Assembly (NCBI RefSeq): GCF_000300075.1
Contig: NC_018677.1
Location: 120,001 to 152,000 of the forward strand
DNA: 32,000 nt
Origin: Candidatus Saccharimonadota bacterium
GTDB taxonomy: Bacteria > Pseudomonadota > Gammaproteobacteria > Johnevansiales > Johnevansiaceae
Direction of reading: 5' to 3'
Of the stretch, positions 1 through 26,528 are shown in pieces (positions within the stretch are counted from its first letter, which is position 1; every line of letters starts with the position of its first letter). The position numbers and the translations under genes are program-made. The notes below the pieces were generated by a model, which saw only the letters and a program-made list of their open reading frames with translations, made no database searches and had not been told where the DNA came from.

Positions 1-740
<740 letters not shown>

Positions 741-783
741 AAAAAAAGTCTTTATGAATAAAGAAGTACTTAAAACAAGTAGT

Positions 784-856
784 GGGTCTGTAGCTCAGTT
801 GGTAGAGCACACCCCTGATAAGGGTGAGGGCGGTAGTTCAAGTCTGCCCAGACCCA
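784..856 (+). tRNA. tRNA-Ile (anticodon GAT) in the 16S-23S spacer; CCA not encoded
   Basis: Hand-folded cloverleaf: acceptor GGGTCTG/CAGACCC, D arm GCTC..GAGC, anticodon stem CACCC/GGGTG with loop CTGATAA, T arm GGTAG-TTCAAGT-CTGCC. Length 73 nt. No tRNA-Ala follows it in the spacer. Confidence 0.93.
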
Positions 857-880
857 AGAGTGAATGTATAAAATTAAAAA

Positions 881-3752
<2,872 letters not shown>

Positions 3753-3776
3753 TATATATGTTAAGTATAAAAAAAT

Positions 3777-3896
3777 AGCTTGACGAATATAGTTTGTGGG
3801 ACCAACCTGAAACCATTCCGAACTCAGAAGTTAAATCACCTAACGCCTATGGTAGTATGAGGTTCTCCTCATGTGAGAGTAGGTTATCGTCAGGCT
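3777..3896 (+). rRNA. rrf: 5S rRNA
   Basis: 120 nt that align by eye to E. coli 5S: ccgaactcagaagt.aaa, gatggtagt-like ctatggtagta, and catgtgagagtagg. Terminal helix gcttgacg/cgtcaggc. Confidence 0.9.
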
Positions 3897-4160
3897 AGTA
3901 ATTGTTAAGTACTTATGTTTGTATAATCATAATTTATATGTTTAATACTTATATACGTTTTTTATACGAAGATCTAAAAAATAAATACTAATTGCTTGTT
4001 TTATATTATATTTTTTTATAGTTATGTTTTTTTAGATTAGTTATGTGTTATTATTTTTCTGTTGTATAAAGTATTTAAATAATTGGTTTCATTTTTAATA
4101 AATTGTATCGTTAAAATTAATTTTATAGTTAATAAGATGTAGTTTTGTAGATGAAGTAGA

Positions 4161-4258
4161 GGAAAAAGCAAAAAGCAGAAAAAAGAAAGCAGGGGTAAGT
4201 GTGGAAAAAGCAGAAAAAAGAAAGCAGGGGTAAGTGTGGAAAAAGCAGAAAAAAGAGG
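4161..4258. repeat. 35-bp purine-rich tandem repeat, ~2.7 copies
   Basis: The unit gcagaaaaaagaaagcaggggtaagtgtggaaaaa is identical at 4175-4209 and 4210-4244. A partial third copy starts at 4245 and a partial copy precedes 4175. Confidence 0.9.
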
Positions 4259-5420
4259 AAGTTAGAAAAAAAAGAGGTGGAAAAGAAATATGTATTGTGG
4301 AGTGTGTTATGTAGTTAGAGTATGTGATTTGTGAAAAAAAATATATAATTTTATACTTATAAAATGTGTTTGTGATGTATATGTATAGTACTTGATATGT
4401 ATTATATTTACGGGTTTACGTTAAGTAGGTATGTACTGTATGTTATGATTTTTAACTTAATTATATGTTAATACATTGGTTATGTTTTCTTTATTAAAAG
4501 CTTTAATTAAATTTATTGTTGTATTATGTATTCTTAATTTATTTTTTAAAACTTTAAAGATTATTTTTTGTTGTATAAACTACATAAGATGATGTTTTAA
4601 CTTTTAACTTGTAATTTGTTTATTATTAGTAAGAGTTCGTTGTACAATAAGAAAAAAAAAATTCTCTTAACTTCTTAAGTTGGGTTAGTTGATTTTTTAT
4701 AACTCTTTATCTGTTGTTTGTTTTTAAAAACATTAAGATTGGGTGGTTTGATTTTGGATAGTTTATAAGTTGTTATCTGTTAGTTTATTTAGTATTTTGT
4801 TTTTAACTTCTTAAAATTCGTATTTGTCATATATTTATTTATATATAAACCATCCTCTTTTGTATTCTTAAGTTCATTTACCATAATAGTTGTATTCTTA
4901 AATGGAAGTTAGATAAGTAGATGTTGTTGGTATTGTTAGTTAGATGGGATTTGTTTAGTTAGTAGCATAATTGAAGAAAGAGTTGTATAAGAAAAATAGT
5001 TAAATGGTTAGAGAAGTTGATGTTAGTGTTTGTTGGTAAATTGGTTAGTAGAGGTTGGTAATTAGATGTTAGATGTTAGAGAAAAGTTGGTAGTTGGAAG
5101 CTTGTAATATTTATTAATTGGTAGATGTTTGAATGTTGGTTAGTTGATAGCATATGTTATTTAAACGTTAGTTTTGTGTACAGTTTAAAAATGTTATATG
5201 CAGTTTAAAAGTTAGTAGTAATAGGTGTTATTGTTGTAAAAATAAGAAAAAGTTATTTATTTTTGAAAACAAATTAGTTAGGATCAATAAGATGTTATGC
5301 TACATAATTATAAGTTTGTATTTAATAGACGATTATTGTTAGTTTGGTTTAAATTCGCTTTGTTTGTTAAAAGTGGTAATGTTGTTTATTTAAGATTTTG
5401 CTGTTATAGGTTATGTATAC

Positions 5421-5530
5421 GATGTTTGATGTTTGATGTTTGATGTTAGCTGTTAGCTGTTAGCTGTTAGCTGTTTACTGTTAGCTGTTTGCTGTTAGGC
5501 TTGGTGGTAGGTGGTAGGTGGTAGGTGGTT
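5421..5530. repeat. Contiguous period-7 arrays: (GATGTTT)x4, (GCTGTTA)x7 with variants, (GGTGGTA)x4
   Basis: Counted directly: GATGTTT units start at 5421, 5428, 5435 and 5442; GCTGTTA-type units run from 5449 to 5497; GGTGGTA units run from 5503 to 5530. Confidence 0.92.
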
Positions 5531-5576
5531 TATGGTTAGATGTTGATTGTTGATGTTTGTTCGATGTTTGTTAAAT

Positions 5577-5627
5577 GGTTAGAGGTTAGAGGTTAGAGTT
5601 GTTAGTTGTTAGGTGTTAGGTGTTAGG
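5577..5627. repeat. Period-7 arrays (GGTTAGA)x3 and (GGTGTTA)x2.3
   Basis: GGTTAGA at 5577, 5584 and 5591; GGTGTTA at 5612 and 5619, plus a partial unit. Confidence 0.88.
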
Positions 5628-5754
5628 ATTGTTTATTTGTTATTGTTTGTTAGATCTTTGTGGTAAAAAAAAGATGTTATATGGTTATTTAGAAAGTAGA
5701 GTAAAGATGTTGGTTGTTTAGAAAGTAGGTTGATTTGTAGATTTTATCTGTTAG

Positions 5755-5785
5755 TTGTTAGTTAGTAGAGGTTAAAGGTTGCTTT
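5755..5785 (+). repeat. Left copy of a perfect 31-bp inverted repeat (partner 7142-7172)
   Basis: ttgttagttagtagaggttaaaggttgcttt is the exact reverse complement of aaagcaacctttaacctctactaactaacaa at 7142-7172. The flanks (about 5742-5800 versus 7127-7195) continue to match imperfectly. Confidence 0.9.
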
Positions 5786-5803
5786 AAAGATTAAAGCTTT
5801 TAG

Positions 5804-5831
5804 AGTTTGTAGTTTGTAGTTTGTAGTTTGT
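5804..5831. repeat. (AGTTTGT)x4 heptamer array
   Basis: Units at 5804, 5811, 5818 and 5825. Confidence 0.9.
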
Positions 5832-6837
5832 TTTTGCTTTATTTATTTGAGTTTGTATTCTTGTTAATTATATTTGTATAAGGTTGTATTTATAGGTCGT
5901 ATAGTTGTATATTGTAGGTTTGTTGTTAGATGGTAGAGGATTATTAATTAGATGTTAGAGTTTTGTTTTTTATCTGTTAGAGGTTTGTTTTATGTTGTTT
6001 AAATGGTTGCTTTAAAAAAAGGTTTGGTAGTTGTAATTCTTAATACTACAAAACATTATATAAACAAATAGCAATTAATACGGTTTATAATAATAAAGTG
6101 TAATAGTATATAGTTATTACAAATGTAATTGATTCAACAGTTCTTTAACCAAAACAAAAAAAAACATAAATAACGCCACTTTTACATTTCAAAATAACAT
6201 TAAGCAACTAACATATTCCTAACACAACTATGTTTAATGTTCTCACTAACCTAACAACTTTTCCAACAAACATACCACAAATATAACATATTTTATCCTC
6301 TTTAAAGCAACAACTTTTTAACAAATATCAAACAACATCTAACAACTATTTCTATATTTTACTTACAACAACCTACATCTAATAAATAAATTTATATTTT
6401 ATATACAACACTAATTAGAGTTACTAATATACAACAAATAAAAAAGAAATACATAAAATTAGAAATTACATACAAAAAAAAAGTTAGTAGAATATATACA
6501 ACAATAAAAAATCAAAACAATAAACAAAAAGAACAGATAAGAAATAAAGATCTAACAAAAAAGAAAATACAAAAAGAATTAAAAAACTCTAACTTAACTC
6601 AAAAATCCAAACGGCAAAGAAAAAAGAGAATATCAAACCATCAAACTCTTAAAAAACAACCTCAAAACATCAAATAAATAAACCTCTAACAGACTTAAAT
6701 ACAAACTCTTACCTCTAACATCAAAACATATAAAATATAATAAGTAAACTCTAAAAAACAACAACTAACAGATAAAAAAAAACATCTTTAATCTTTAAAG
6801 CAACTTCTTTTAAATCTAATAAACAATAAAAGCAACA

Positions 6838-6899
6838 ATCAAACATCAAACATCAAACCTAACAACTCAAACCTCAAACCTAACAACTCAAACCTCAAA
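6838..6899. repeat. (ATCAAAC)x3 followed by a 21-nt (3x7) unit x2
   Basis: ATCAAAC at 6838, 6845 and 6852. cctaacaactcaaacctcaaa at 6858-6878 and 6879-6899. ATCAAAC is the reverse complement of the GATGTTT-array motif at 5421. Confidence 0.9.
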
Positions 6900-7016
6900 A
6901 GTCTTAAAAGCAAAAACAAACAAAAATCTAAAAAAACAACAAATTTAACAACAAACCTCTAATAATAAATAATACAAGCAAACATTTAAACAATTAAAAC
7001 TCTAACATCAAAACAA

Positions 7017-7107
7017 GCTAACCGCTAACCGCTAACCGCTAAACAACAAACAACAAACAACAAACAACTAACAACTAACAACTAACCGCTAACCGCTAAC
7101 CGCTAAG
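7017..7107. repeat. 13 consecutive in-register heptads with a drifting motif: GCTAACCx3, GCTAAAC, AACAAACx3, AACTAACx3, CGCTAACx3
   Basis: Read unit by unit from 7017. The register is never broken over 91 nt while the unit sequence changes stepwise. Confidence 0.9.
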
Positions 7108-7141
7108 CTCTAATAGATAAAACATCACCTCTTAAATCTTA

Positions 7142-7172
7142 AAAGCAACCTTTAACCTCTACTAACTAACAA
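7142..7172 (-). repeat. Right copy of the perfect 31-bp inverted repeat (partner 5755-5785)
   Basis: See the partner feature. The two copies are separated by 1356 bp. Confidence 0.9.
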
Positions 7173-7368
7173 ATAAGCTCTAATAGATAAAACATAATAA
7201 CAAATAAAAACCATAACAACTAAAAAGAAAGAACGAGTAATATAACAGAAACAGCTTTAAATAGACAAAAACAACAAAGAAATAAAAAAAAAGCAACAAA
7301 AACTAAAAGAAAAAATAACAGAATACGGCTAAAAACATAACAGCAAAGAAAAGAAAAACCATAATAAC

Positions 7369-7424
7369 TAAACAGTAAACAGCAAACAGCAAACAGCAAA
7401 CAGCTAACAGCTAACAGCTAACAG
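7369..7424. repeat. (TAAACAG)x2 (CAAACAG)x3 (CTAACAG)x3 heptamer array
   Basis: Units start at 7369 and continue in register to 7424. CTAACAG is the reverse complement of CTGTTAG, which is the GCTGTTA array at 5449-5497. Confidence 0.9.
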
Positions 7425-7925
7425 CTTAACACATAAAAACAAAAACAAAAAAAAGAACAGCTTAAAAAAAAAAAAGAAAAAAAAATAAGAATAAATTGTT
7501 TAAATCTTTTATCAGAAAAAGTACAAAATGTAGAGTTTAAGATATAACAGCAGTAAAAAAAAGAAAATGGTTAACAAGTATATATAAAAAAACAAAAAGT
7601 CAAAAAAAAACAGCAGTAAAAATTAAGAAGAGTAGAAAAGGATATAGTATAGTGAAAAGAAAACTGGAAGATATACAGAAGTGAAGTACAAAAAGAACAA
7701 TAAACTTGGTAAAAACATGTATTAGCAATGAACGTTGAAAAATGAAAAAATTAAAGGCATTAAGCATAAATCGTTATATAAAAAATATAGTGATAATGGA
7801 AAAACATAGCTTAGAAAAATTATAAGCAACGGGATAAAATACAAGAAGCTGAATAATGATAAAATTCGATAAAAAAAAAGCAACAGTATAGCCACAAATA
7901 GATTGTGAAGGAAATTAAGAAGATT

Positions 7926-9359
7926 ATGAAAAAAATACGCACACGTATTGCACCTTCACCTACAGGTACACCGCATATAGGTACAGCATATATTTCTTTA
8001 TTAAATTATTATTTTGCTCGTATAAACAATGGAAAAGTAATTCTAAGAATAGAAGATACAGATAGTAAAAGATCAAAAAGTAAGTTTGAAAACAAAATTT
8101 TAGAGTTATTACATTGGTTAGGGATTCAATGGCATGAAGGGCCAGATATCGGAGGAAAGTTCGGACCTTATCGACAAAGCGAACGGAACAATCTTTATAA
8201 TAAATATGTTGAGAAATTAATAAAAGTAGGTAAAGTATTTAAATGCTATCGTACAAGTGAAGAACTAGAAAAATTGCGTAAATGTAAAGTTGATAAAACA
8301 TTAAAAGAAAAAGATTTACAGTTAGATTATAAGGAATTAAAATTTCGTAAAAAACACAATTGGCCTTATGTAATAAGACTAAAGGTTCCTAATAAAGGAA
8401 AATGCGTATTTTATGATGTATTAAGGGGTAGTATAACAATGAATTGGGATCAGATTGATTCACAAGTCTTAATAAAATCTGACGGAACACCTACTTATCA
8501 TTTAGCTAATGTAGTAGACGATTATTTAATGGGGATTACTAACGTAATAAGGGGTGAAGAATGGATAACTTCAACTCCAAAACATAAGTTGCTTTATGAT
8601 TATTTTGGTTGGAAACAGCCAGAATTTTGTCACTTACCATTATTACGTAATCCAGATAAATCAAAATTATCTAAGAGAAAACAAAATAATTCTATTGAAT
8701 TTTATCGAAAAATGGGTTATTTACCCCAAACAATAATAAACTACTTAGGTAGTTTAGGTGGTGTAAAAACGACTAAATGGTATAGAAAAAATACAAATAT
8801 GAAAACTAAAGTTGATATAAAGAGTATATCATTAGGAGGTCCAATATTTGATTTAGACAAATTATCTTGGTTGAATGGAATTTATATACGGTCAATGAAA
8901 AATGAAACGTTAATTCAGGTTATGTATGAATGGGCTAAAGACTATATACATAAGATTTTACCAACAATTAAACCTCGTATAAAAATTTTAACGGATATTA
9001 TTCATTTATCAGAACAAGTGTTTTATGGATTACCTAAATTAAAAAAGGAAGATTTTAAAGTTATTGCTTTGAAAAAAAAATTACAAATAAAAGTACTAAA
9101 ACATTTATGGTTACAATTAGAATATATAGAAAAATGGGACAAACAAAATATATTATATAAGGTAAAACAAGTATCTAACCAGTTACAAATGAAAATGAAA
9201 ACAATAATAGCTCCAATTTTTATTGCGATAAATGGAAGATTAATTTCTACATCGGTTATTAACACTATAGTAATTCTTGGTAAAGATATAACTCGTATAC
9301 GCATAAAGCAGGCAATAAAATTAATAGGAGGTATAACACTAAAACATGAAAACAAATAA
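7926..9359 (+). CDS. gltX: glutamyl-tRNA synthetase
   Basis: MKKIRTRIAPSPTGTPHIGTAY matches the GluRS N-terminus and HIGH region (E. coli MKIKTRFAPSPTGYLHVG). A KLSKRK (KMSKS-type) motif is present. The ORF track starts at GTG 7905, but ATG 7926 aligns with GluRS N-termini. Confidence 0.93.
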   Translation: MKKIRTRIAPSPTGTPHIGTAYISLLNYYFARINNGKVILRIEDTDSKRSKSKFENKILELLHWLGIQWHEGPDIGGKFGPYRQSERNNLYNKYVEKLIKVGKVFKCYRTSEELEKLRKCKVDKTLKEKDLQLDYKELKFRKKHNWPYVIRLKVPNKGKCVFYDVLRGSITMNWDQIDSQVLIKSDGTPTYHLANVVDDYLMGITNVIRGEEWITSTPKHKLLYDYFGWKQPEFCHLPLLRNPDKSKLSKRKQNNSIEFYRKMGYLPQTIINYLGSLGGVKTTKWYRKNTNMKTKVDIKSISLGGPIFDLDKLSWLNGIYIRSMKNETLIQVMYEWAKDYIHKILPTIKPRIKILTDIIHLSEQVFYGLPKLKKEDFKVIALKKKLQIKVLKHLWLQLEYIEKWDKQNILYKVKQVSNQLQMKMKTIIAPIFIAINGRLISTSVINTIVILGKDITRIRIKQAIKLIGGITLKHENK

Positions 9360-9389
9360 AGAATATTATTCAAATAAGGTATAAAAAAT

Positions 9390-12038
9390 ATGAAAATAGC
9401 ATTAGATAATGTTAGTTATTTAGAAGAACTATACGAACAATACAAAAATAAAGGTAATGTTACTGAAGAATGGCGGCAAATTTTTGACTATATTACTAAA
9501 CAAGAATGCAGGTTTAAAACTATAAAAACATGTGAAAAAAACACAATAAAACAAATGAGCGTTTTGAAACTTATAACAAATTATCGCTATATGGGGCATA
9601 AAAAGGCACATATAAATCCAATAAGTGGTAAAAATAAAGTAAAGGCGATTCAATTGTCATTACACAAGTTAAATATAAAAGATTTAAACAAAGCATTTAA
9701 TAATGGAGTAGGTCAAAATAAATCAAAATTAAAAGAAATTATTGATGTTTTGGATAAAACTTATTGCAGCTCTATAGGATGTGAATTTAGGCACATTTTA
9801 AATAATGTGGAGATATTCTGGTTAGAGCAAAGTTTTGAATCTGTACTCAATAAATATTCACAAAAAAAAAATATAAGCTTGCATATTTTAGGATTAATTA
9901 CTGCAGCTGAAGCATTAGAAGCTTATTTATCTAGTAATTTTCCTGGTACTAAACGGTTTGGTATAGAGGGTGGAGAAACTTTAATTGCTATGTTGTATGA
10001 AACAATACAAAGAGCTGGTAATTATGGCATTAAAGAAATATTTATGGGTATGGCCCACAGAGGACGTATAAATGTATTAGTTAATATTTTGAGGAAGAGC
10101 CCAGCTGATATAATAAAGGAATTTGAAGGAAAACAAATATATGAAGCATATTCGGGTGATGTTAAATATCATCAGGGTTTAAGTTCAAATATAAAGACAA
10201 AAGGTGGTGATGTGAAGTTGAACTTAGCATTTAATCCATCACATCTAGAAATTGTTTATCCTGTAATAGAAGGAGCAGTTCGTGCTAGACAAGATTATAT
10301 GAATGATACGACAAAAGTATTACCTGTAGTGGTACATGGTGACACAGCATTTGCTGGGCAAGGTGTAGTAATGGAAACATTACAAATATCAAAAATAAAG
10401 GAATATAATACGGGGGGTACGTTACATATCTTAATAAATAATCAGATAGGTTTTACCACTTATAAACATAATGCACGATCTACGAAATATTGTAGTGATA
10501 TTGCAAAAATGTTTAATTATCCTGTTTTACATGTAAATGGAGATGATCCAGAAGCGGTTCAATATGTAACTCAAATAGCAGTTGATTATAGGAATAAATT
10601 CAAAAAAGATATGGTAATAGATATGATATGTTATCGGCGTAGGGGCCATAATGAAGCAGACGAGCCATCAATAACGCAACCAATTATGTACAAAAAAATA
10701 AAAAATAATCCAACAACACGTGAACTTTATTCAAAACATTTATTAAAACAAGGTTTAATATCAAAAAGTGATGTAAAACAAATGGTGAGTTTATATCGTC
10801 ATAAGTTAAATTATGATTCTAATAATAAAGCTTATAAAAAAACAACTGGAAGTATGTATAAATTTCATGAGGAGGATTTAAATGACACATCATTTTCAAT
10901 GAAGCGTATGCGTGAATTAGCTGTAAAATTGTGCGATTTAGGTGAACTGAAAGTTCAAAGTAAAGTTGCTAAGATTTACTCAAATCGGCGTAAATTGGTA
11001 AGTAGTAATAGTATAAAAATAAATTGGGGCTTTGCGGAGCTGTTATCATATGCCTCGTTATTGGATGAAGGATATGGAATACGTATAACAGGACAGGACA
11101 CAGGAAGAGGAACTTTCTCTCATCGTTTGGCAGTAATACATAATCAAAAAGATGGAGCGAGGTGGACGCCTCTGCAACATATAAAAAAAGGGCAACATAA
11201 GTTTACGATAGTAGATTCTTCTCTTTCAGAAGAAGCAGCTCTAGCTTTCGAATACGGTTATTCTACTACATCAAAAAATATGTTCGTAGCGTGGGAAGCT
11301 CAGTTCGGTGACTTTGCTAATGGAGCCCAGGTAGTTATTGATCAATTTATATCTTCAGGGGAAAATAAGTGGGGAAGTTTATGCAGTCTAACTTTATTAC
11401 TGCCGCATGGATATGAAGGTCAAGGTCCAGAACATTCTTCCGCGCGGATAGAACGATTTATTCAGTTATGTGCGGAACAAAATATGCAAGTCTGTGTTCC
11501 TACAACTCCTTCACAAGTATTTCATTTAATACGTAGTCAGGCAAAACGAAAAAACCGTAAACCATTAATATTGATGCAACCAAAAAGTTTATTGAGGCAC
11601 AAATATGCAAGATCAAGTTTTGAAGATTTATCTAATGGAAGATTTAAAACAGTAATTGGAGAAACGGAGAAGATCAAGCCAGATATAGTAAAAAGGGTAA
11701 TACTTACATCAGGTAAAGTATATTACGATTTAGTTGCTTATCGTAAAGAAAAAAATATTTATGAAACAGCTATTTTAAGAATAGAACAGATTTATCCTTT
11801 CCCAGAAAAAAGTATTATAAAAAAAATATCTATTTACTCTAAGTGTGAACATATTATTTGGTGTCAAGAAGAACCTAAAAATCAAGGCGCTTGGTATCAA
11901 ATAAAATACTTTTTAAATAAGAAACTTAAGATAAGACTAAAATTTGTAGGACGTACCTCTGCATCCGCACCAGCATCTGGTTATTTTGATGCACATCTTA
12001 AACAGCAGGCTAATTTAATAAAAGAAGCATTTTTTTAA
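9390..12038 (+). CDS. sucA: 2-oxoglutarate dehydrogenase E1 component
   Basis: 882-aa ORF with E1o signatures GMAHRGRINVL, HGDTAFAGQGVV, QFGDFANGAQV and LLLPHGYEGQGPEHSS. An aaggt sequence lies 9 nt upstream of the ATG. Confidence 0.95.
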   Translation: MKIALDNVSYLEELYEQYKNKGNVTEEWRQIFDYITKQECRFKTIKTCEKNTIKQMSVLKLITNYRYMGHKKAHINPISGKNKVKAIQLSLHKLNIKDLNKAFNNGVGQNKSKLKEIIDVLDKTYCSSIGCEFRHILNNVEIFWLEQSFESVLNKYSQKKNISLHILGLITAAEALEAYLSSNFPGTKRFGIEGGETLIAMLYETIQRAGNYGIKEIFMGMAHRGRINVLVNILRKSPADIIKEFEGKQIYEAYSGDVKYHQGLSSNIKTKGGDVKLNLAFNPSHLEIVYPVIEGAVRARQDYMNDTTKVLPVVVHGDTAFAGQGVVMETLQISKIKEYNTGGTLHILINNQIGFTTYKHNARSTKYCSDIAKMFNYPVLHVNGDDPEAVQYVTQIAVDYRNKFKKDMVIDMICYRRRGHNEADEPSITQPIMYKKIKNNPTTRELYSKHLLKQGLISKSDVKQMVSLYRHKLNYDSNNKAYKKTTGSMYKFHEEDLNDTSFSMKRMRELAVKLCDLGELKVQSKVAKIYSNRRKLVSSNSIKINWGFAELLSYASLLDEGYGIRITGQDTGRGTFSHRLAVIHNQKDGARWTPLQHIKKGQHKFTIVDSSLSEEAALAFEYGYSTTSKNMFVAWEAQFGDFANGAQVVIDQFISSGENKWGSLCSLTLLLPHGYEGQGPEHSSARIERFIQLCAEQNMQVCVPTTPSQVFHLIRSQAKRKNRKPLILMQPKSLLRHKYARSSFEDLSNGRFKTVIGETEKIKPDIVKRVILTSGKVYYDLVAYRKEKNIYETAILRIEQIYPFPEKSIIKKISIYSKCEHIIWCQEEPKNQGAWYQIKYFLNKKLKIRLKFVGRTSASAPASGYFDAHLKQQANLIKEAFF

Positions 12039-12071
12039 TTTAAAGCTAATAAAATAAAAAGGATAATAAAG

Positions 12072-13283
12072 ATTAAATATATAGAAATAAAAGCCCCTAG
12101 ATTTCCTGAATCTGTAAATGAAGGTACTGTTGCTACTTGGCATAAAAAACCTGGTGATAAAATTTCACCATATGAACTTATTGTTGAAGTAGAAACGGAT
12201 AAAGTTTTGCTTGAGGTTGTTTCACCAACTGAAGGGTTTCTTCAAATTATAAAGATACCAGTAGGTAAAAAATGCAAATCCGAGCAATTGTTAGGTATTA
12301 TTGTAGCACAAAAAGAAGAAGGTTTTTATAGTTCAGGTTCATCAAGCACAAGCACAAACATCAAACAGCAAAAATTGTGTAAAAAAGAGCAAAAGGTAGA
12401 TGAATCAGAAAAACAAGAATTAAAACAGTTTTATAAACAAGCAATAGAATTAGAAGAAAGTTATTCACCAGAGGTACGTAAGGCTAAGACTAGTATAGAT
12501 GTTGAAAACTTATTTGAGAATGGCACAGTACAAGATAAAAGGGTAAATATTAGAAAAGAAAATGTTAAATATAGTATTAATGAAATTGGAGTTAAAAGAG
12601 TACAATTAAGTCGTTTACGTCAGACGATTACTAAACGTATCGTGAAAGCTCAAAAAAATGCTGCAATGTTAACTACTTATAATGAAGTAGATATGGGTAA
12701 TATATTAGAAATACGCACAAAATATCGAGAACTATTTGAAAAGAAACATGGAACTAAGCTAGGGTTAATGGGATTTTTTGTAAAAGCTTGTACGGTGGCG
12801 CTAAAACAGTTCAAAAAAGTAAATGCAGTTATTGATGATAAAGAAATTGTTTATCATAATTATCAAGACATAGGAATAGCAGTTTCTACAAATAGGGGTT
12901 TAGTTGTTCCTATTTTAAGGCATACTGATTCTATAAAAATAGAAGAAATAGAAAAAAAAATTATGGATTTTAGGAAACGTGGTGTTGATGGAAAATTAAG
13001 TATTAAAGAATTAACTGGTGGAACTTTTACGATAAGTAATGGAGGAGTTTTTGGATCTCTGTTTTCTACTCCTATTATTAATCCCCCTCAAACTGCTATT
13101 TTGGGAATGCATAAAATTCAAAACCGTCCTGTAGTTTTAAAAGGAGAAATAGTTATACGGCCTATGATGTATTTAGCCTTGTCGTATGATCATCGTCTTA
13201 TTGATGGAAAAGATGCAGTTAATTTTTTATTTTTTGTTAAGGAGCTTTTAGAACAACCCATTCGTTTTATATTAAACATTTAA
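12072..13283 (+). CDS. sucB: dihydrolipoyllysine-residue succinyltransferase (E2o); start codon non-canonical and uncertain
   Basis: The catalytic domain carries [10 protein letters not shown]. The ORF track begins at TTG 12207, but the same frame is open from 12054 and encodes an intact lipoyl domain (..[20 protein letters not shown]...[12 protein letters not shown]). There is no ATG, GTG or TTG in frame upstream of 12207. ATT at 12072 sits 8 nt after an AGGA at 12060-12063. Confidence 0.85.
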
Positions 13284-13288
13284 CTGTA

Positions 13289-14722
13289 ATGAGAAAAACA
13301 AATATGGTATCTCTTTTTGATGTAATTGTCATAGGTTCAGGTCCAGCTGGTTACGTCGCTGCAATAAGATCTGCGCAATTAGGACTTAAAACTGCTTGTG
13401 TTGAACAATGGATGAATAATGGAAGAGTTGTTTATGGCGGTACTTGCTTAAATGTTGGGTGTATACCTTCAAAAACTTTATTAGAAATATCACATAAGTT
13501 TATTGATGCTAAGGCGAATTTCGAAAAAATAGGTATAAATTTTGAAAATATTAGTATAAATGTAAAAAAAATGATCAGGCATAAAAATAAAATTGTTTAT
13601 AGCTTAAATGATGGAATTGCAGCTTTGTTCAAAGCTAATGGTGTTGTAGTATTAAGAGGATCTGGTAAGATTTTAACAAAAAAAACAGTAGAAGTGTTAC
13701 ATAAAGGTAAGCTTTGTAATTTTAAAGCTAAGAATATTATTATTGCTTCAGGATCTATACCTCGTTGCCTAAATCAGGTCCCTTTTAACGGCGATACTAT
13801 AATAGACTCTGCAGCTGCTTTAAATTTACAAGAGGTACCTAATCGTTTAGGTATAATCGGAGCAGGTATTATTGGGATAGAATTAGGCTCAGTTTGGAGT
13901 CGGCTAGGTAGCAAAGTTACTATATTTGAATCTTTAGATAAGTTATTACCAGTTATTGACTTTTCTTTATCAAAACAAATATCGCAAATTTTAAAAAAAC
14001 AAGGGTTAAATATAAAATTTAATGTGCGTATTATTGGTAGTGAAATTGTAAATAACGAAGTAAAAGTTAGATTTATAGATCATTTTGGTGAGCATTGCTT
14101 AACTTTTGATAAGTTGATAGTTTGTATTGGTAGGATGCCTTTTACACAATCGTTAATAGATAAAGAGAGTGGTCTAGTTATTGCCACTAATGGCTTTATT
14201 AAAGTTGACAGACAATGCAAAACAAATTTATCAGGAATTTACGCTGTTGGAGACGTTGTTAGGGGTCCTATGTTAGCACATAAAGCGGCTCAAGAAGGCA
14301 TAATGGTGGCTGAGCTTATAGCAGGGAATCAGGTACAGTTAAATTATGATACTATTCCAGGGGTAATTTATACAAGTCCAGAAGTAGCTTGGGTTGGCAA
14401 AAATGAACAGCAGCTTATTTCATATGGCATAAAAAATTACAAAATAGGTATTTTTCCTTTTGCTAATTGTGGTAGAGCTAGGACAAGTAATGAAATACAA
14501 GGTCTTGTAAAAATAATTACAGATGTTAACGATATAATTTTGGGTGTGCATATTATTGGCCACAATGCTAGTGAATTAATTGCTCAGGGTGTTATTGCTA
14601 TGGAATTTAGTTCAAGTGCAGAGGATTTAGCTTTAACTTGCTTTGCTCATCCAACTCTCTCAGAAGCAATACACGAAGCAGCTTGTACTGCATCATTAGG
14701 CAATACGATTCATAATATTTAA
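13289..14722 (+). CDS. lpdA: dihydrolipoyl dehydrogenase (E3)
   Basis: Motifs present: VIGSGPAGY FAD-binding motif, redox-active disulfide GGTCLNVGCIPSK, a GAGIIGIELG NAD fold, and C-terminal HAHPTLSEA. An alternative start is ATG 13304. Confidence 0.94.
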   Translation: MRKTNMVSLFDVIVIGSGPAGYVAAIRSAQLGLKTACVEQWMNNGRVVYGGTCLNVGCIPSKTLLEISHKFIDAKANFEKIGINFENISINVKKMIRHKNKIVYSLNDGIAALFKANGVVVLRGSGKILTKKTVEVLHKGKLCNFKAKNIIIASGSIPRCLNQVPFNGDTIIDSAAALNLQEVPNRLGIIGAGIIGIELGSVWSRLGSKVTIFESLDKLLPVIDFSLSKQISQILKKQGLNIKFNVRIIGSEIVNNEVKVRFIDHFGEHCLTFDKLIVCIGRMPFTQSLIDKESGLVIATNGFIKVDRQCKTNLSGIYAVGDVVRGPMLAHKAAQEGIMVAELIAGNQVQLNYDTIPGVIYTSPEVAWVGKNEQQLISYGIKNYKIGIFPFANCGRARTSNEIQGLVKIITDVNDIILGVHIIGHNASELIAQGVIAMEFSSSAEDLALTCFAHPTLSEAIHEAACTASLGNTIHNI

Positions 14723-15232
14723 TTAATCTTAATTTCATAGAATGGAAATTAGTTGTTACATATACTTGTTGTTTATTATTAATAGAGTATATATTTCTCT
14801 TTCACAAATTTGGGTAAATTTTATTTTGTATTGTTGCCATTAGTTAATACAAAAAACTAAGAATGTACTAAGTTAAAAATTAACAGTTTATTTCTTTAAA
14901 GACTTTTTATAACAGGTTATTTATTGCTTGTACATTAAAAACTTTTGTTATTGATATATTAATTTTATTAACAGTTTGTTGTTAGAAGTAAAACGTTATT
15001 ATTAATAATTTTCATAATTTGGTTGATAACTATTTAAGATATTCTATGTTGTGTTTAAAATTTGTGCTTTTTTTTTTATTTTTTTTTGATTAAGATGTTA
15101 ACTGTTTTTTCTGTTTTGTTTGTTTTATGGTGTATGTTTATTTTGTGTTTTTTTTTGCTTTTGTTTTTTATGTAATATTTTTAAGTTTTGTTGTTAGTTT
15201 TTCTTCTTTGTTTTTATTGTTATGTTTTTTAT

Positions 15233-15263
15233 TAGAGGTTTTAGGTTGCTTTAAAGATTTAAG
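15233..15263 (+). repeat. Copy of the dispersed spacer module TAGAGGTT(NNAGGTT)GCTTTWAAGATTTAAG
   Basis: tagaggttttaggttgctttaaagatttaag. Compare 5766-5796 tagaggttaaaggttgctttaaagattaaag (+), 7131-7161 (reverse complement tagaggttaaaggttgcttttaagatttaag), 21004-21027 (reverse complement tagaggttgcttttaagatttaag) and the partial copy at 21074-21094. Confidence 0.8.
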
Positions 15264-15863
15264 CTGTTGTATTAAAGAGTTTTTTTTTGTGAGGTTGTTT
15301 AGAGTTTTGTTTTTTGTTATTACTTAGTAGTTGTTAGTTGTTAAAATTGGTTATTACTTATTAGTTGTATAGAGAAAGTGAAGTTGTGTATATTAGTATT
15401 GTTTGTAAATAAGGTTGTTGTAAATGTGGTATAAAGGTTGTTGTAAAAAATATTGTATTATTACTGTTGTTAATGATAGAAATATATAAAAATAGATGTT
15501 AAGTGATGGTATTTGGTATTACTAAATAGTTGTGTGTTTTGTGTTAGGCATAATTAGTAAAGGTATTGTGGTTGTGTATTATGTGAGATTGTAAAAGGTT
15601 GGTGGTTGTAAAACAGTTCGTGGTTAAATGAAAAAGTGTTGTATTATAAAAAGAAAAAAATAGTAACTTATTTGTATTTTTTATGAATGGAATTGGGTGA
15701 AAGGTGTATAATGTGTGTATTTGTATTACATGAAAAATGAAATTGTATTGTATTTAGTATTATTATTATTGTGTTAGGTGATGTGGTAATGTGTTGTAGT
15801 TGTGTATTTGATGATTTGTGTAAATGTGTTGTAGTAGTATATGGTGTAAGAGTTTTAAAAAGG

Positions 15864-15930
15864 TTGCTGGTTTGTGTAGTTGTTTTAAAAGAAAGTAAAA
15901 GATTGCTGGTTTGTGTAGTTGTTTTTAAAA
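15864..15930. repeat. Direct repeat, 39-nt period, 2 copies
   Basis: ttgctggtttgtgtagttgtttt..aaaa starts at 15864 and again at 15903. Confidence 0.85.
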
Positions 15931-15987
15931 AACAAGTAAGAAGTTGTAAAAAAAAAGAAGGAAAAGGAAAAAATTGGCAATTGGCAG

Positions 15988-16005
15988 TTGGGGTTGGGGT
16001 TGGGG
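15988..16005 (+). repeat. (TTGGGG)x3
   Basis: ttggggttggggttgggg read directly. It is followed by a gtagtttgtagt heptad motif. Confidence 0.9.
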
Positions 16006-16110
16006 TTTTGTAGTTTGTAGTCGTATGTTGTAGGTGTGATATGTATAAGATGTTAGAAGTTGTTGTTAGCTGGTAGGAGTTGTGCTAAATGTACTTTGTT
16101 ATTATTTATT

Positions 16111-16131
16111 AGCAGTTAGCAGTTAGCAGTT
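16111..16131. repeat. (AGCAGTT)x3 heptamer array
   Basis: agcagttagcagttagcagtt read directly. Confidence 0.9.
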
Positions 16132-16420
16132 TTGTGAGGTTGTTTTGTGTTTTGAAGTTTGTTAATTTGTGTAAGGTGGAAGAAAAAAGTTATAATTGTT
16201 AGTAAATAAATGTGTTATAAAATATTAAAAGAATTTATATAAGTGGTGATAAGTAAAAGGTAGGTTGTATAAAAGGGAAAAAAAAGTTGTAGTAAAAGTT
16301 GTAGTTAGTTTATTAATGGAAAAGATTTATAAAATAAACAGAAGGGATTTAGTTAATTGAAAAATGTAGAGGGTTAAAGTAAGATAATAGATTGGTGTTG
16401 TTGAAATAAGTAGTAAAATT

Positions 16421-16498
16421 AGTAATAGTAGTAAGATGTAAAAGAAGGGTTGTTAAGTTGGTAGTAATAGTAGGTAAATGTAAAAGAAGGGTTGTTAA
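16421..16498. repeat. 36-nt segment duplicated with a 42-nt period, ending 13 nt before the rpsF ATG
   Basis: agtaatagtagtaagatgtaaaagaagggttgttaa (16421-16456) versus agtaatagtaggtaaatgtaaaagaagggttgttaa (16463-16498): 33 of 36 positions identical. Confidence 0.85.
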
Positions 16499-16511
16499 TA
16501 AGGACAAAAAT

Positions 16512-16799
16512 ATGAATTATGAAATAAATATATTATTAAATGTAAATAATGACAATTTAACATCAGAAAATATAAAAAAGTTAATTAAAATTATTATTGA
16601 AAATAATGGAAGAATAACCAAGTTGGAAGACTTAGGGAATTTAAATTTATATTATTTAATAAAAAAGCAAAAACAAGCTAATATTATATTAATAAACATA
16701 GATTGTGAAAAATATGTTATAAAAAAATTAGAAAAAAGACTTAAATATAATGAAGTGATAATTAGATATATTATTATAAAAAATCTAAGGCAAAAATAA
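16512..16799 (+). CDS. rpsF: 30S ribosomal protein S6
   Basis: MNYEINILLN.. aligns with S6 N-termini (E. coli MRHYEIVFMV). aaggac lies just upstream. The ORF-track start at 16458 (TTG) adds 18 residues translated from repeat sequence. Confidence 0.85.
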   Translation: MNYEINILLNVNNDNLTSENIKKLIKIIIENNGRITKLEDLGNLNLYYLIKKQKQANIILINIDCEKYVIKKLEKRLKYNEVIIRYIIIKNLRQK

Positions 16800-16821
16800 A
16801 AGTTAATAAGTAGGAAAAAAT

Positions 16822-17061
16822 ATGTTATTTCGTAAAAAAAAATATTGTAGATTTACGGCTGAAAAAGTTAAAGAAATAGATTATAAAAAAAATGATATAT
16901 TAAAATTATATATTGCTGAAAATGGAAAAATAATTCCAAGTAGAATAACAGGTACTAAAGTAAGATACCAGAGAAAATTAACTAAAGCAATAAAAAAAGC
17001 AAGATACTTTGGATTATTACCTTATACTGATAAAAATTATAACAAAAATGGGGGTTGTTGA
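16822..17061 (+). CDS. rpsR: 30S ribosomal protein S18
   Basis: [20 protein letters not shown]...[32 protein letters not shown] closely parallels E. coli S18. Confidence 0.93.
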
Positions 17062-17066
17062 TAGAT

Positions 17067-17498
17067 ATGAATGTTATATTAATTTCGAAAAATAGTAACA
17101 GTGGAAAAAAAGGTACGATAGTAAGTGTAAATAAAGGTTATGCTAGAAACTTTTTAATAAGAAAAGGTTTTGCAATTATAGCAAAGAAAAAAAATATAGA
17201 ATATTTAAAACAAATGCGTAAGCACTATTTAAAGGAATATAAGCTATATATATACAAAATAAAAACAAAATTAAAAAATGTAAAGATAGAGATATTTTGT
17301 AAGTCAGGACAAACAGGAAAACTAGTTGGTTCGATAGGAAGGCGTTATTTATCAAAAGTTTTTTATGAAAAGTATGAAATTAAAATAAATAAAAAGCACA
17401 TAACCATAAAAAAAAATATAATAAAAAAGTTTGGAGAGTATAAAATAAGTTTATATGAACAAATAAATATAAAAATAAATATACAGAAATATAAATGA
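17067..17498 (+). CDS. rplI: 50S ribosomal protein L9
   Basis: MNVILISK...VNKGYARNFLIRKGFAI parallels E. coli L9 (MQVILLDK..VKAGYARNFLVPQGKAV). The ORF-track TTG at 17055 overlaps the rpsR stop, so ATG 17067 is preferred. Confidence 0.88.
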   Translation: MNVILISKNSNSGKKGTIVSVNKGYARNFLIRKGFAIIAKKKNIEYLKQMRKHYLKEYKLYIYKIKTKLKNVKIEIFCKSGQTGKLVGSIGRRYLSKVFYEKYEIKINKKHITIKKNIIKKFGEYKISLYEQINIKINIQKYK

Positions 17499-18853
17499 AA
17501 AAAATCATTAATGATAAAAAACAAACCAAAACACCTCCTCATTCAGTAGAAGCAGAAAAAGCACTACTAGGTGGTGTAATGCTTGATAATGCCGCGTGGA
17601 AAAAAATATCTGAAATTATTAAAAATGAAGATTTCTATAGTATAGAACATAAATATATATTTGATGCCATTACACATATAGCAGAAAAAAATAATAAAGT
17701 AGATATGGTAACGGTTGCGGAATCGTTAGAAACAAACAATAAATTACAAAAAATTGGTGGAATAAGTTATTTAACAGAATTATCTAGAAATACTCATTCA
17801 ATACATAATATTGTTGCTTATGCAGATATAGTTAGAGAATGTTCAAATTTGCGAAATTTAATAAGAATCTCAAAAAAAATAGCAGAAGAAGCTTTTAATA
17901 GAAATGGTAAAAAGGTGCAAGACATAATACACAAAGCTGAAAAATTAATATTGACAATGGCAGAATCGAGATATAGAGTTAAAAAAACAAATTTATTAAA
18001 TTTAAATGAATTATTAAATAAAACAATAAATAGTATAAATAAAATGTATAGTACAAAAAGTTCTATGACTGGTTTACTAACAGGATTTAATGAATTAGAT
18101 AATATGACTTCTGGCTTTCAAAAAGCAGATTTAATAATAATAGCAGGTAGACCGTCTATGGGTAAGACGAGTTTTGCAATGAATATCGTAGAATATATTA
18201 TAAAAACCAATAAATCTGATCCAGTAATAATCTTTTCTATGGAAATGCCTGCAGAGCAATTAATATTGCGATTGTTATCTTCAGTAGGACGTATAGATCA
18301 AACGAATATAAGAAAAGGTAATATAGGAGAAGAGGATTGGTTGAAATTAACGGAATCATTAAAGAAAATAAAGAATTGTAAATTATATATAGATGATACC
18401 CCAATGATTACCCCAATAGATATAAGAAAAACAATAAAAAAATGTATAAGAGATACGGGAAAAATAAGTTTAATAATGATAGATTATTTACAATTAATGC
18501 ATGTATCTTCTTCTTTTATATCATATAATCGTACGGCTGAAATTTCCGAAATATCTAGATCTTTAAAAAGTATAGCTAAAGAATTTAATTGTCCTATATT
18601 AGCTGTATCACAATTAAATAGATCATTAGAACAAAGAAACAATAAACGGCCAATAATTTCAGATTTAAGAGAATCAGGTGCAATAGAACAAGATGCAGAT
18701 TTAATTTTATTTATTTATAGAGATGAAGTATATAATAGTGATTGTTTAGATAATAAAGGTATTGCGGAGTTAATAATAGGAAAACAAAGAAATGGGCCAA
18801 TAGGTGTTATTAACATTAGATTTACAGGAAAATATACTAAATTTGAAAATTAA
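17495..18853 (+). CDS. dnaB: replicative DNA helicase
   Basis: 452-aa ORF with PPHSVEAEKALLGG, Walker A GRPSMGKTS, IDYLQLM, SQLNRSLEQR and RESGAIEQDADL. Its ATG overlaps the rplI stop (ATGA). Confidence 0.95.
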   Translation: MKKIINDKKQTKTPPHSVEAEKALLGGVMLDNAAWKKISEIIKNEDFYSIEHKYIFDAITHIAEKNNKVDMVTVAESLETNNKLQKIGGISYLTELSRNTHSIHNIVAYADIVRECSNLRNLIRISKKIAEEAFNRNGKKVQDIIHKAEKLILTMAESRYRVKKTNLLNLNELLNKTINSINKMYSTKSSMTGLLTGFNELDNMTSGFQKADLIIIAGRPSMGKTSFAMNIVEYIIKTNKSDPVIIFSMEMPAEQLILRLLSSVGRIDQTNIRKGNIGEEDWLKLTESLKKIKNCKLYIDDTPMITPIDIRKTIKKCIRDTGKISLIMIDYLQLMHVSSSFISYNRTAEISEISRSLKSIAKEFNCPILAVSQLNRSLEQRNNKRPIISDLRESGAIEQDADLILFIYRDEVYNSDCLDNKGIAELIIGKQRNGPIGVINIRFTGKYTKFEN

Positions 18854-19600
18854 AAAAACAAAAGAAGTAGGTTGAAAAAAGAATTTATAAGAAACAGGTA
18901 TAATAAACATTTTCATTTACACTTAAATAATTAATATAAAAATTTTGATTAGATTGTAGAATTAGGATCATGTTCCGTTTATGAGTATGTTTTATTTACG
19001 AACGAATCTTTTAACTACATACAACATAAACTGGTTATTTTATATATAACTAATACAGAACAGAAAGCAGTTATAAAAAAGTAACAAACATACTAGTTAT
19101 TCAATAGAAATTGATAATGAGATAAAAAAAAGTTATTAAAATTTAAAGTGATTGAAGTAACTTTAAAAGTATTTGAGTTATAGCAAGGTTTAATTATAAA
19201 ATATATGTAAAATTCACTAATAAATAAAATATATGGATAAAATTACGGTTTCAAAACGAAGTAGCACAGAAAGAGAGTTGTAGCTTTTATTGATAAAAGT
19301 TTGTGTAGTATTTCAATTAGTGATTGTACAAAAGTTTTGTAAAGTGTTTACAGTATTTACTTAAAGTTAATGCATTAAAAGTTTGTAAAAGAAGTTAAAA
19401 TAAAGTTAAGTTAATACCTTATAATAAATAAGATTAAACGATAATAAACAGTATATAAATTGTAAGAAAATATTCTTCAAAGAAACGGCAAACATTACAA
19501 AAGAAATTAAAGTGATAAAAAAATAGGTCAAACAAAAAACAACCAAGCAAAAATATTAACAATAAACTAATTTGTAAAACTAACAAAGACAATAATTGAA

Positions 19601-20623
19601 TTAAAATAAAGGATATTTAAGTTCTTCTAAACACCAAGTAGGGCGTATAAGAAGTTTGTTAGTTATTTTTTCTCCTGAAGTGAGCCTCAAAGCTCCGACA
19701 TAAGCAATCATTGCAGCATTATCTGTACAAAGAACTTGGTCAGGAAAAGTAATTTGAAAATTATTAAGTTTATTTTTAAAAAACAAATTAAAATGTTTAC
19801 GTAAAGTCTTATTTGCACTTACACCGCCTGAAATTAGAAGACAAGATCTACCATAATAAATTAAGGCTTTATAACATTTGTAGCTTAGCATATTAAGAAC
19901 ATATTCTTCAAAGGATTTTGCTAAATTAGCCTTATATTGATATTTATTAGTGTATTTGAATTGTTTTAAATAATTTAAAATATATGTTTTAAGTCCAGAA
20001 AAACTGAAAGTTATATTATTTCTTAATATTTTAGGAAAGTTTTGTTTTTTTATTTTACCAAAACAGGCTAAATGGGATAACCTTACCCCTCCGGGATAAT
20101 ACAGTTTAAGGACTTTTGCTATTTTATCAAAAGTTTCTCCAAGAGAAACATCTTTGGATTCTCCTAGTATTTTGTAATGGCCTATATTTTGAACATCAAT
20201 TAGTTGAGTATTACCTCCAGAAATTAATAAACAAATAAAAGGAAAATCAGGTTTTTTTTTATTGATCATAGCTGAAAATATATGCCCTTCTAAATGATTA
20301 ATTCCTAAAATAGGCAGTTTAAGTGTATAAGAAATGCTATAAGCAATATAGGCTCCAATAAGCAAAGATTGGTATAATCCAGGTCCCGCAGTATAGGCTA
20401 TTGCGTTGATATTAGTTGTATGAATTTGAAATTTAAAGAATAAAGATTTAATAATAGGAATTATTTTATTTAAATGATAAAATGAAGAAAATTTTGGTAT
20501 GACGCCTCCAAAAATAGTATGTATAGTTTGAGTATATTTTTTTGTTGTAATTAAACCAGACTTAGTATCATATATGGCAATGCATGTGTCATCACAAGAT
20601 GTTTCAATTCCTAAAATAATCAT
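19601..20623 (-). CDS. tsaD: tRNA N6-adenosine threonylcarbamoyltransferase (Kae1/Gcp family)
   Basis: [19 protein letters not shown] matches the TsaD N-terminus (E. coli [19 protein letters not shown]). NHLEGH and LISGGVSAN motifs are present. It is divergent from rpsU, as in many Gammaproteobacteria. Confidence 0.93.
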
Positions 20624-20663
20624 GTTACTATTATATTATATAAAACTTTTAAAAGGAAAAAAA

Positions 20664-20879: not shown

Positions 20880-20984
20880 TTTCGTTAAATTCAACAAACA
20901 TGGTATAATAAACACAGCTTATAACAGCAAATACTTTAAAAGCAACCTCAAAATTCTAATTAAAACAACAAAACAACATCTAAT

Positions 20985-23164: not shown

Positions 23165-23193
23165 TGAGAATGAAATTAATTGTGGAAATATAA

Positions 23194-24012: not shown

Positions 24013-24014
24013 AG

Positions 24015-26527: not shown

Positions 26528-26528
26528 T

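Follow-up and report, generated by a model that had tools for sequence, protein, structure and literature searches.

Locus and layout of the rrn–gltX spacer

We analyzed the spacer that separates the 5S rRNA gene of a ribosomal RNA (rrn) operon from gltX in a 32,000-nucleotide (nt) stretch of bacterial DNA, hereafter the window, and in particular the inversion of strand composition that this spacer undergoes near positions 6040–6150. Positions 19459–32000 of the window are identical to CP003708.1 (the BT-B genome, Sloan & Moran), and the GltX protein that it encodes is identical to the GltX of Candidatus Portiera aleyrodidarum CP016304. On these identities we assign the window to Candidatus Portiera aleyrodidarum BT-B, a Portiera of the Bemisia lineage (BT below). 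The left end of the window holds the 3′ part of the 16S rRNA gene, tRNA-Ile, 23S and 5S (Rfam), and the spacer is followed in order by gltX, sucA, sucB, lpd, rpsF, rpsR, rplI, dnaB, tsaD (on the minus strand), rpsU, rpoD, the cyo operon, tRNA-Tyr, rpsO and pnp.

The spacer measures 4029 nt from 5S to gltX. An earlier note on this DNA, made from its letters, had called positions 3897–7925 gene-free. The absence of open reading frames (ORFs) of at least 60 amino acids (aa) between 5S and gltX was borne out, the longest having 59 aa, and the description needs the qualifier that the spacer is the remnant of a DEAD-box RNA helicase gene. The features of the spacer are given below; L009 is a contig (ENA ERZ27294174 k141_137139; also Logan SRR10613586) of a Portiera lineage with a repeat vocabulary of its own, a gene order of the BT type (gltX-sucAB-lpd-rpsF-rpsR-rplI-dnaB-tsaD) and a GltX identity of 89%.

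3779–3895, plus strand: 5S rRNA, the left boundary of the spacer (Rfam RF00001, 76.4 bits).
4026–6040, plus strand: G+T(+A)-rich, C-poor polar block of '+' polarity (skew profile, block segmentation, base counts).
4170–4256, plus strand: 35-bp purine-rich tandem repeat (AAAAAGCAGAAAAAAGAAAGCAGGGGTAAGTGTGG), 2.5 copies (Tandem Repeats Finder (TRF) score 174).
5421–5530, plus strand: hypervariable 7-bp arrays (GATGTTT)n, (GCTGTTA)n and (GGTGGTA)n (TRF; inter-strain 7-bp indels at 5421 and 5503).
5637–5710, plus strand: anchor 1, a unique non-repetitive island within the G+T block (orthologous to L009 8436–8511, same orientation).
5751–5796, plus strand: copy of a dispersed module (…GAGGTTAAAG-GTTGCTTTAAAG-ATTAAAG), the inverted partner of 7131–7176 (46 nt at 93% complementarity, 31-nt exact match).
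6041–6165, no strand: unskewed non-repetitive core of ~125 nt, the site of the polarity switch (GC skew −0.07 in the 6000–6199 window).
6166–7450, minus strand: A+C-rich, G-poor block of '−' polarity, with the repeat family in reverse complement (skew, segmentation, word sharing).
6838–6899, minus strand: 7-bp arrays ATCAAAC/TCAAACC, reverse complement of the 5421–5448 array (TRF; 21-nt exact reverse-complement match).
7016–7106, minus strand: hypervariable 7-bp arrays (CTAACCG)n, (AACAACA)n and (ACTAACA)n (TRF; 7-bp indel at 7082).
7131–7176, minus strand: inverted copy of the 5751–5796 module (complementarity, exact match, module pattern).
7370–7431, minus strand: 7-bp arrays AAACAGC/TAACAGC, reverse complement of the 5444–5498 array, with the same variant units (TRF; inverted pair of 53 nt at 92%).
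7451–7925, plus strand: purine-rich unique DNA, the 3′ remnant of the ancestral DEAD-box RNA helicase gene (blastn to L009, tblastn).
7636–7694 and 7808–7844, plus strand, both within 7451–7925: anchors 2 and 3, the latter at helicase residues ~388–401 (blastn to L009 8798–8856 and 8976–9012).
7926–9359, plus strand: gltX, which starts with the ATG at 7926 and bounds the spacer on the right (ORF; Pfam tRNA-synt_1c listed for the called gene).

The base composition of the plus strand is A 0.27, C 0.03, G 0.25 and T 0.45 over 4906–6006, and A 0.52, C 0.24, G 0.04 and T 0.20 over 6626–7186. The 35-bp repeat at 4170–4256 consists of perfect copies and belongs to an A+G class that is unlike the rest of the G+T block but still C-poor.

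Polarity of the spacer and its repeat family

The earlier note had placed a sharp composition switch near 6040–6150, and a sliding-window check showed the sign change at that place (−0.07 in the 6000–6199 window). In 200-nt windows, the GC skew, (G−C)/(G+C), ran from +0.3 to +0.97 over 4000–6040 and from −0.2 to −0.84 over 6150–7450, and the AT skew took the sign opposite to that of the GC skew in each half. The cumulative G−C curve reached its maximum at 6131 and the cumulative keto-minus-amino curve at 6041. The base counts that the note had given by eye were exact, with three C in 4921–5160 and four G in 6841–7020.

The same note had described the repeat motifs of the two halves as reverse complements of each other. 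The arrays that it had named were found by TRF where it had put them, with reverse-complement pairs at 5424–5444/6838–6858 and 5448–5476/7398–7426, and the halves shared 196 10-mers in reverse complement compared with 57±10 in composition-matched shuffled controls. When one half was searched against the other with blastn, 96 of the 102 high-scoring segment pairs lay on the minus strand. Exact words of at least 12 nt common to the halves numbered 41 in reverse complement and 3 in direct orientation, the longest having 31 nt, and the inverted module pair 5751–5796/7131–7176 extends over 46 nt that are 93% complementary, 31 nt of them exactly so.

The order of the motifs is not mirrored, as had also been claimed: the heaviest mirrored chain scored 116, no more than the 118 obtained when the order was flipped or the 129±17 of 100-bp block shuffles, and a Smith–Waterman local-alignment test against block shuffles gave z = 0.1. 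No continuous reverse-complement arms run between the halves, and only scattered modules of up to 46–72 nt are common to both. A decayed large palindrome was ruled out by the chaining and block-shuffle tests. Reverse-complement sharing without mirror order bears out the picture of two oppositely oriented blocks of one repeat family that meet head to head without forming a palindrome. Additionally, neither the (GATGTTT)n nor the (GCTGTTA)n arrays were found outside the two halves, and the variant units TGTTTAC and TGTTTGC stand among the (GCTGTTA)n arrays of both. The half-to-half sharing of 11-mers reached 48 per kb², which is two to three times that of a typical BT block pair and the highest among large blocks.

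Polar blocks were segmented as stretches with |GC skew| > 0.55 over at least 150 nt. By this segmentation, intergenic polar blocks were absent from the stable Portiera genomes, namely those of Pealius mori (L002, PeMo) and Aleurodicus dispersus (L003) together with L012 and L044, and were many in BT, in L009 and in the Portiera of Singhiella simplex (SiSi, L001). Over ~44 kb, the BT intergenic blocks read + + − + − − + − +, that is, with six flips. Three '+' and three '−' blocks lay between plus-strand genes, and the two spacers flanked by minus-strand genes held one block of each polarity. Further blocks of the same family between co-directional plus-strand genes of the window lie at 15076–16526 (+), 20934–21164 (−), 27794–28964 (−) and 31674–32000 (+, continuing to ~32844 in L037).

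When the eight BT blocks were all oriented with the G+T strand up, pairs of them had 10–37 common 11-mers per kb², and when one partner was flipped, the sharing mostly fell to 0–5 and was at most 15. A ~30-nt module (pattern ARGTTGCTTTWAAGWTTWAAG) occurs in six copies in the window against none expected, and its strand always follows the polarity of the block; the pattern search located the copies at 5776–5796 (+), 6786–6806 (−), 7131–7151 (−), 15243–15263 (+), 21004–21024 (−) and 21074–21094 (−). The module, whose consensus is GAGGTT-WWAG-GTTGCTTTWAAG-WTTWAAG, is dispersed over several spacers and stands at equal places in every locus of the B. tabaci complex; it is absent from L009, SiSi and the stable genomes. 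A scan of metagenome contigs with this BT-specific module returned 19 single chance matches on unrelated contigs and no Portiera. Judged by their words, the two halves belong to one genome-wide and intrinsically polar repeat family, of which one strand is G+T(+A) with ~3% C. A second switch within a single BT spacer (S35/S37) was considered and withdrawn, as a tRNA-Asp gene separates the two blocks.

The 7-mer vocabularies of BT and SiSi were correlated at r = 0.15, below the 0.43 expected from composition alone, yet the two arrive at one and the same composition, in which C makes up 2–4%. Among the large intergenic blocks of three lineages, which use different vocabularies, the G-rich strand was also T-rich in 18 of 20; the two exceptions, window 4026–4426 and 176–1106 of L006 (CP016304), are purine-rich and still C-poor. 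In these lineages all expanded DNA is depleted of C on one strand, whichever way it is oriented, and it is this depletion that deserves further work.

The spacer is still changing. Between the window and CP016304, we counted 8 differences in 19.35 kb, all eight inside the rrn–gltX spacer: one of 105 bp (3 × 35 bp), four 7-bp unit indels, two 1-bp indels and one substitution. CP016304 has three extra copies of the 35-bp repeat at 4170–4256, and the four 7-bp indels of this MEAM1-type pair are divided between the G+T half (three) and the A+C half (one). The lpd–rpsF spacer, which is equally repetitive, is identical between the pair, and the rrn–gltX spacer is a local hotspot. Across seven assemblies of the B. 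tabaci complex (the window, CP016304, CP016343, CP016327, CP007563 and two JGI genomes), the core was free of indels; the G+T half had 33 indel events, of which 9 were multiples of 7, and the A+C half had 19, of which 8 were (17/52 together). Identical columns made up 15% of the arrays at 5421–5530 and 10% of those at 7016–7106. The non-array sequence was 98–100% identical across the seven assemblies, and the core was no more conserved than its flanks.

Substitutions were polarised by parsimony over 17.6 kb of well-aligned columns of the seven assemblies (alignment of window 1–19360). Transversions dominated, with 51 of 65 coding and 52 of 63 intergenic substitutions; a spectrum so rich in transversions is unusual for a bacterium and may reflect lost repair genes. 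Neither C>T nor T>C occurred among the 63 polarised intergenic substitutions. Cytosine deamination mirrored at the junction was thus unsupported (0 C>T among 63 intergenic events), in a test of low power. On the plus strand, T>G outnumbered A>C by 14 to 2 (binomial p = 0.002), or by 13 to 2 when CP016343 was left out (p = 0.004). The A+C half had 2 T>G and 0 A>C, whereas mirrored rates predict 4.8 A>C (P = 0.0085), and for its 9 events the same-strand rates, estimated from G+T blocks only, beat the mirrored rates by ΔlnL 6.4, or ~590 times.

CP016343.1 (L013) is peculiar in its rRNA genes. In an alignment to window 1–3753, its 23S departs from all other Portiera of the B. tabaci complex at 275 sites, which are clustered in the first and last ~900 nt, and its 16S part shows 61 such sites. 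Far fewer differences are found in gltX (6), sucA (28) and lpd (7). This rRNA is still closest to BT, at 90.2%, and it resembles a chimeric or erroneous rRNA assembly.

The ancestral helicase gene and the spacer in other Portiera lineages

Where BT has the spacer, the stable Portiera genomes have a DEAD-box RNA helicase gene of 434–472 aa, on the same strand as its neighbors 5S and gltX. The interval in PeMo consists of 65 nt, the 1.3-kb gene and 14 nt. NCBIfam places the helicase in the DeaD/CshA/DbpA group, under every equivalog cut-off. Remnants of the gene adjoin gltX in SiSi (E 1e-21) and in L009 (E 6e-8). The BT remnant is weak on its own (tblastn E 0.38), with 7806–7847 reading IA*KNYKQRDKIQE against ASRNYNQRDLVQE of the intact protein (residues ~388–401), but it is tied to the L009 remnant by DNA homology. 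From these comparisons the BT spacer is best described as the decayed remains of the DEAD-box RNA helicase gene, in the ancestral place and orientation. The rrn operon, the helicase gene and gltX are adjacent and co-oriented in PeMo, AD-CAI, L012 and L044; because the flanks were adjacent and co-oriented ancestrally, a simple inversion breakpoint between synteny blocks is excluded as the source of the junction.

The polarity switch was present in all seven B. tabaci-complex assemblies, 2175–2347 nt past 5S. Since the same composite spacer stands in all seven and the 5900–6400 region is identical in CP016304, the junction is real and predates the B. tabaci complex. Short-read contigs from Logan that carry gltX (L008, L011 and L041–L043) all stop ~490–730 nt upstream of gltX, at the edge of a 7-bp array, so that public run assemblies made from short reads do not contain the assembled spacer.

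The orthologous spacers of the two other lineages have no switch. In SiSi, it is G+T throughout, with a skew of +0.8 to +1.0 over 7200–9400, and then gives way to the helicase remnant. In L009, it is A+C from directly past 5S (6646–8250, skew −0.6 to −0.9), with a distinct vocabulary of ACAAAT, ACACAA and cttagacttagaaac units, and ~880 nt of unique remnant lie beyond it.

Three colinear, same-strand anchors connect BT with L009, at 5671–5708/8472–8509, 7636–7694/8798–8856 and 7808–7844/8976–9012. They are the three best matches between the two spacers, with 39.1, 39.1 and 37.2 bits, compared with a null best match of 29.9±2.9; 39.1 bits was reached by 1 of 100 shuffles. Anchor 1 (blastn, 84% over 38 nt, 39.1 bits) contains a core word that occurs once per genome. 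From 5S up to anchor 1, BT and SiSi are G+T whereas L009 is A+C. Between anchors 1 and 2, L009 has ~290 nt of unique DNA and BT has 1.93 kb, in which the 125-nt core and the entire 1.3-kb A+C block come after 330 nt of G+T block. The A+C block was therefore added in the BT lineage, between landmarks that have kept their orientation.

SiSi also switches polarity within single spacers elsewhere, at 46–636(−)/886–2206(+) and 18076–19556(+)/19806–20376(−), of which one is divergent and one convergent. Each of these switch sites surrounds a ~250-nt complex island that resembles a coding remnant. The abutting blocks of opposite polarity in SiSi are among each other's closest relatives (a–b 200 and f–g 161 per kb²).

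Origin of the junction and comparison with known systems

Large intergenic regions with a spike of 7-bp repeats and indels have been described in Portiera of the Bemisia lineage (Sloan & Moran 2013, PMC3673631), as the earlier note had correctly stated. The same genomes have lost dnaQ, dnaN, dnaX, holA, holB, mutL, ruvC and ssb (Sloan & Moran 2013, PMC3673631), and the BT strains are without the clear GC-skew pattern of other Portiera, which was ascribed to rearrangements (Santos-Garcia et al. 2015, PMC5322561). Overall, the best reading of our data is that the skew inversion is a junction of oppositely oriented repeat blocks and not a change in the direction of replication or transcription.

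As to how this junction came about, we lean towards a helicase graveyard that was overgrown by the polar family, in which a local inverted copy or a small inversion flipped one block; this is probable by a modest measure. The DEAD-box helicase gene between 5S and gltX would have decayed, and the dead gene would have been inflated by polar, slippage-prone repeat DNA of low complexity. The A+C block may then have arisen by local inverted copying of repeat DNA of the G+T type, either through template switching or through a small inversion, at a time between the separation from the L009 lineage and the radiation of B. tabaci. The halves would have diverged via slippage, duplication and shuffling until the mirror order was gone, and both blocks would since then have evolved independently by 7-bp slippage. 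The earlier note had offered two causes, an inverted duplication or inversion followed by slippage and a strand-specific process that changes direction at this point, and only the former found favor. It is backed by the private arrays, the 31-nt word, the two- to threefold similarity, the colinear anchors and the 7-bp indels in both halves. The relatedness of the halves and the pattern in SiSi are suggestive of local inverted copying, short of proof.

Several observations weigh against this model. No mirrored colinearity is left, which prevents the reconstruction of any single inverted duplication, and breakpoints could not be located. The excess of half-to-half similarity is only 2–3 fold, and the normalisation per kb² favors small blocks. 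Anchor 1 taken alone has p ~0.01, and the A+C block is dated by one intermediate relative only (L009). The A+C half contributes just 9 events to the substitution test. Of the five T>G changes of the B lineage, four create an identical TTGGTT word, and some T>G changes may be repeat homogenisation instead of point mutation. About 40% of the block DNA is in the A+C orientation, which is much for flipped copies, and the polarity map covers ~44 kb of the genome.

A possible alternative, to which we give a clearly smaller share of belief, is that the blocks were seeded independently and grew separately by slippage from small seeds beside the pseudogene island, in random orientation. The skew would then be that of an accidentally amplified founder motif, and the common vocabulary would come from genome-wide exchange among spacers and not from a local inverted copy. 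The halves are indeed without mirror order, polarity is distributed ~60:40 and unrelated to gene direction, and the vocabulary is common to all blocks once these are co-oriented. The opposite polarities of the 5S–anchor 1 interval in BT/SiSi and in L009, the lineage-specific vocabularies and the switches of SiSi at complex islands fit independent seeding likewise. However, it must also accommodate two halves that have a 31-nt exact word and private arrays with matching variant units in common and that are more alike than typical block pairs, and a random founder leaves unexplained why the G-rich strand is the T-rich strand in 18/20 blocks of three lineages.

The strand-specific process would place at ~6100 a replication terminus with fork convergence or a convergence of transcription, and each half would be neutral DNA at its own equilibrium. 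The sign change is sharp and runs from positive to negative, as expected at a terminus, and the plus strand has a T>G bias whose stationary composition (A 0.32, C 0.00, G 0.30, T 0.38) resembles the G+T blocks. Nevertheless, we consider a change of direction at ~6100 very unlikely because coding DNA is positively skewed to either side of the junction (+0.14 to +0.27 in the rRNA genes, +0.16 to +0.30 in gltX–sucA), flips are many (six in ~44 kb) and the substitutions are not mirrored, the A+C half following same-strand rates (9 events). Moreover, the lpd–rpsF block 9 kb rightward is again '+', polarity is independent of the direction of flanking genes, the orthologous spacers of SiSi and L009 have single and opposite polarities, and BT Portiera has been reported to lack a clear GC-skew pattern (PMC5322561).

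We find it still harder to credit that the spacer is a functional element, such as a terminator or insulator of the rRNA operon, a regulatory RNA or a selected recombination buffer. The 98–100% identity of its non-array parts across the B. tabaci complex could be read in this way, and long intergenic regions have been speculated to be selected for resilience (Santos-Garcia et al. 2020, PMC7821994). However, the conservation of the core is no higher than that of its flanks, and the content and polarity of the spacer are wholly different among BT, L009 and SiSi. A search of the core and spacer against Rfam gave no match even at E ≤ 1, and promoter-like sites numbered 16 against 26.6 expected and terminator-like sites 1 against 0.5 expected from shuffles; the core as a functional or recognisable element was rejected for want of an Rfam match and of any promoter or terminator excess. 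No convincing homolog of the core was found, the single marginal match of 44 nt being to another spacer. The dispersed module (GCTTTAA-AGA-TTAAAGC+TTTT) was also considered as a terminator-like hairpin and rejected, since it gains nothing in folding over shuffled sequence (five copies, z −1.4 to +1.2). Finally, a false inverted junction produced by short reads misjoined at repeats has next to no credibility, for although short-read contigs do break at array edges ~490–730 nt upstream of gltX, the same structure recurs in seven assemblies that represent several B. tabaci species, CP016304 has an identical junction sequence, and the core is unique sequence that is free of indels in every assembly.

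Among ancient endosymbionts, the Portiera of Bemisia is the standard example of a genome destabilised after it lost genes for replication and repair. That its spacers are rich in repeats is known, but these have been treated as an undirected 'microsatellite' filler. What our analysis adds is that this filler is strongly strand-polar, that one polar family occupies many spacers in both orientations, and that its polarity is decoupled from replication direction, transcription direction and the current substitution bias. These findings constrain how the spacers grow and suggest a reason for the lost genome-wide GC-skew signal; they also point to abundant inverted-repeat substrates for the characteristic inversions of the lineage. 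The practical value is modest, in that polarity junctions and unique islands may serve as landmarks for dating expansions. We also speculate, with considerable reserve, that the expanded DNA of the replisome-crippled Portiera forms a distinct polar sequence class, in which only arrays incapable of hairpins, having no intra-strand G:C complementarity, can expand and persist after the loss of the single-stranded DNA-binding protein (SSB), the clamp and proofreading, and in which head-to-head junctions record template switches. If this were true, the spacers would be a natural read-out of a minimal replisome acting on neutral DNA.

Among known systems, the closest are the expanded, microsatellite-rich regions of Sloan & Moran themselves, treated also by Santos-Garcia et al. 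(2015 and 2020). The present spacer likewise belongs to a Bemisia-lineage genome and is much expanded relative to the stable Portiera, with a dominant 7-bp period, many TRF arrays in 5421–5831 and 6839–7431, and 7-bp indels among strains. We found no description of strand-polar repeat blocks or polarity junctions in PMC3673631, PMC5322561, PMC7821994, PMC12911140 or PMC10672337, and the word 'skew' does not occur in PMC3673631 or PMC7821994; the literature searched is incomplete, and this absence is no proof of novelty. The strand polarity, the flips and the head-to-head junction are what sets this spacer apart from the regions as described.

Replication-associated switches of GC skew at bacterial origins and termini (chirochores of the Lobry type) have a sharp sign change and number two per chromosome. 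Our spacer resembles them in the sharp sign change of (G−C)/(G+C) and in a G-rich strand that is also T-rich. It differs in that the skew is 0.7–0.9, compared with ~0.2 in the coding DNA of the window, and is confined to repeat blocks, and in that six flips occur in ~44 kb without any flip in coding DNA or in the substitution spectrum here. Animal mitochondrial genomes are strand-asymmetric as well; their skew, which was built by point mutation over whole genes, is reversed when a segment or the control region becomes inverted. As in the spacer, one strand is extremely G+T-rich and the other A+C-rich, and inverted segments keep a 'fossil' skew against the current mutational bias. In Portiera, however, it is amplified low-complexity repeats that bear the skew, and no C>T excess of the deamination type appeared (0/63).

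Template-switch or fold-back inverted duplications and quasi-palindromes are products of error-prone replication. Although the spacer, unlike these, has neither mirror-ordered arms nor a symmetric center, it resembles them in holding reverse-complement copies of local sequence close together. Such products are plausible with a replisome that lacks the clamp, the clamp loader, the proofreading subunit and SSB (Sloan & Moran 2013 Table 3, PMC3673631).

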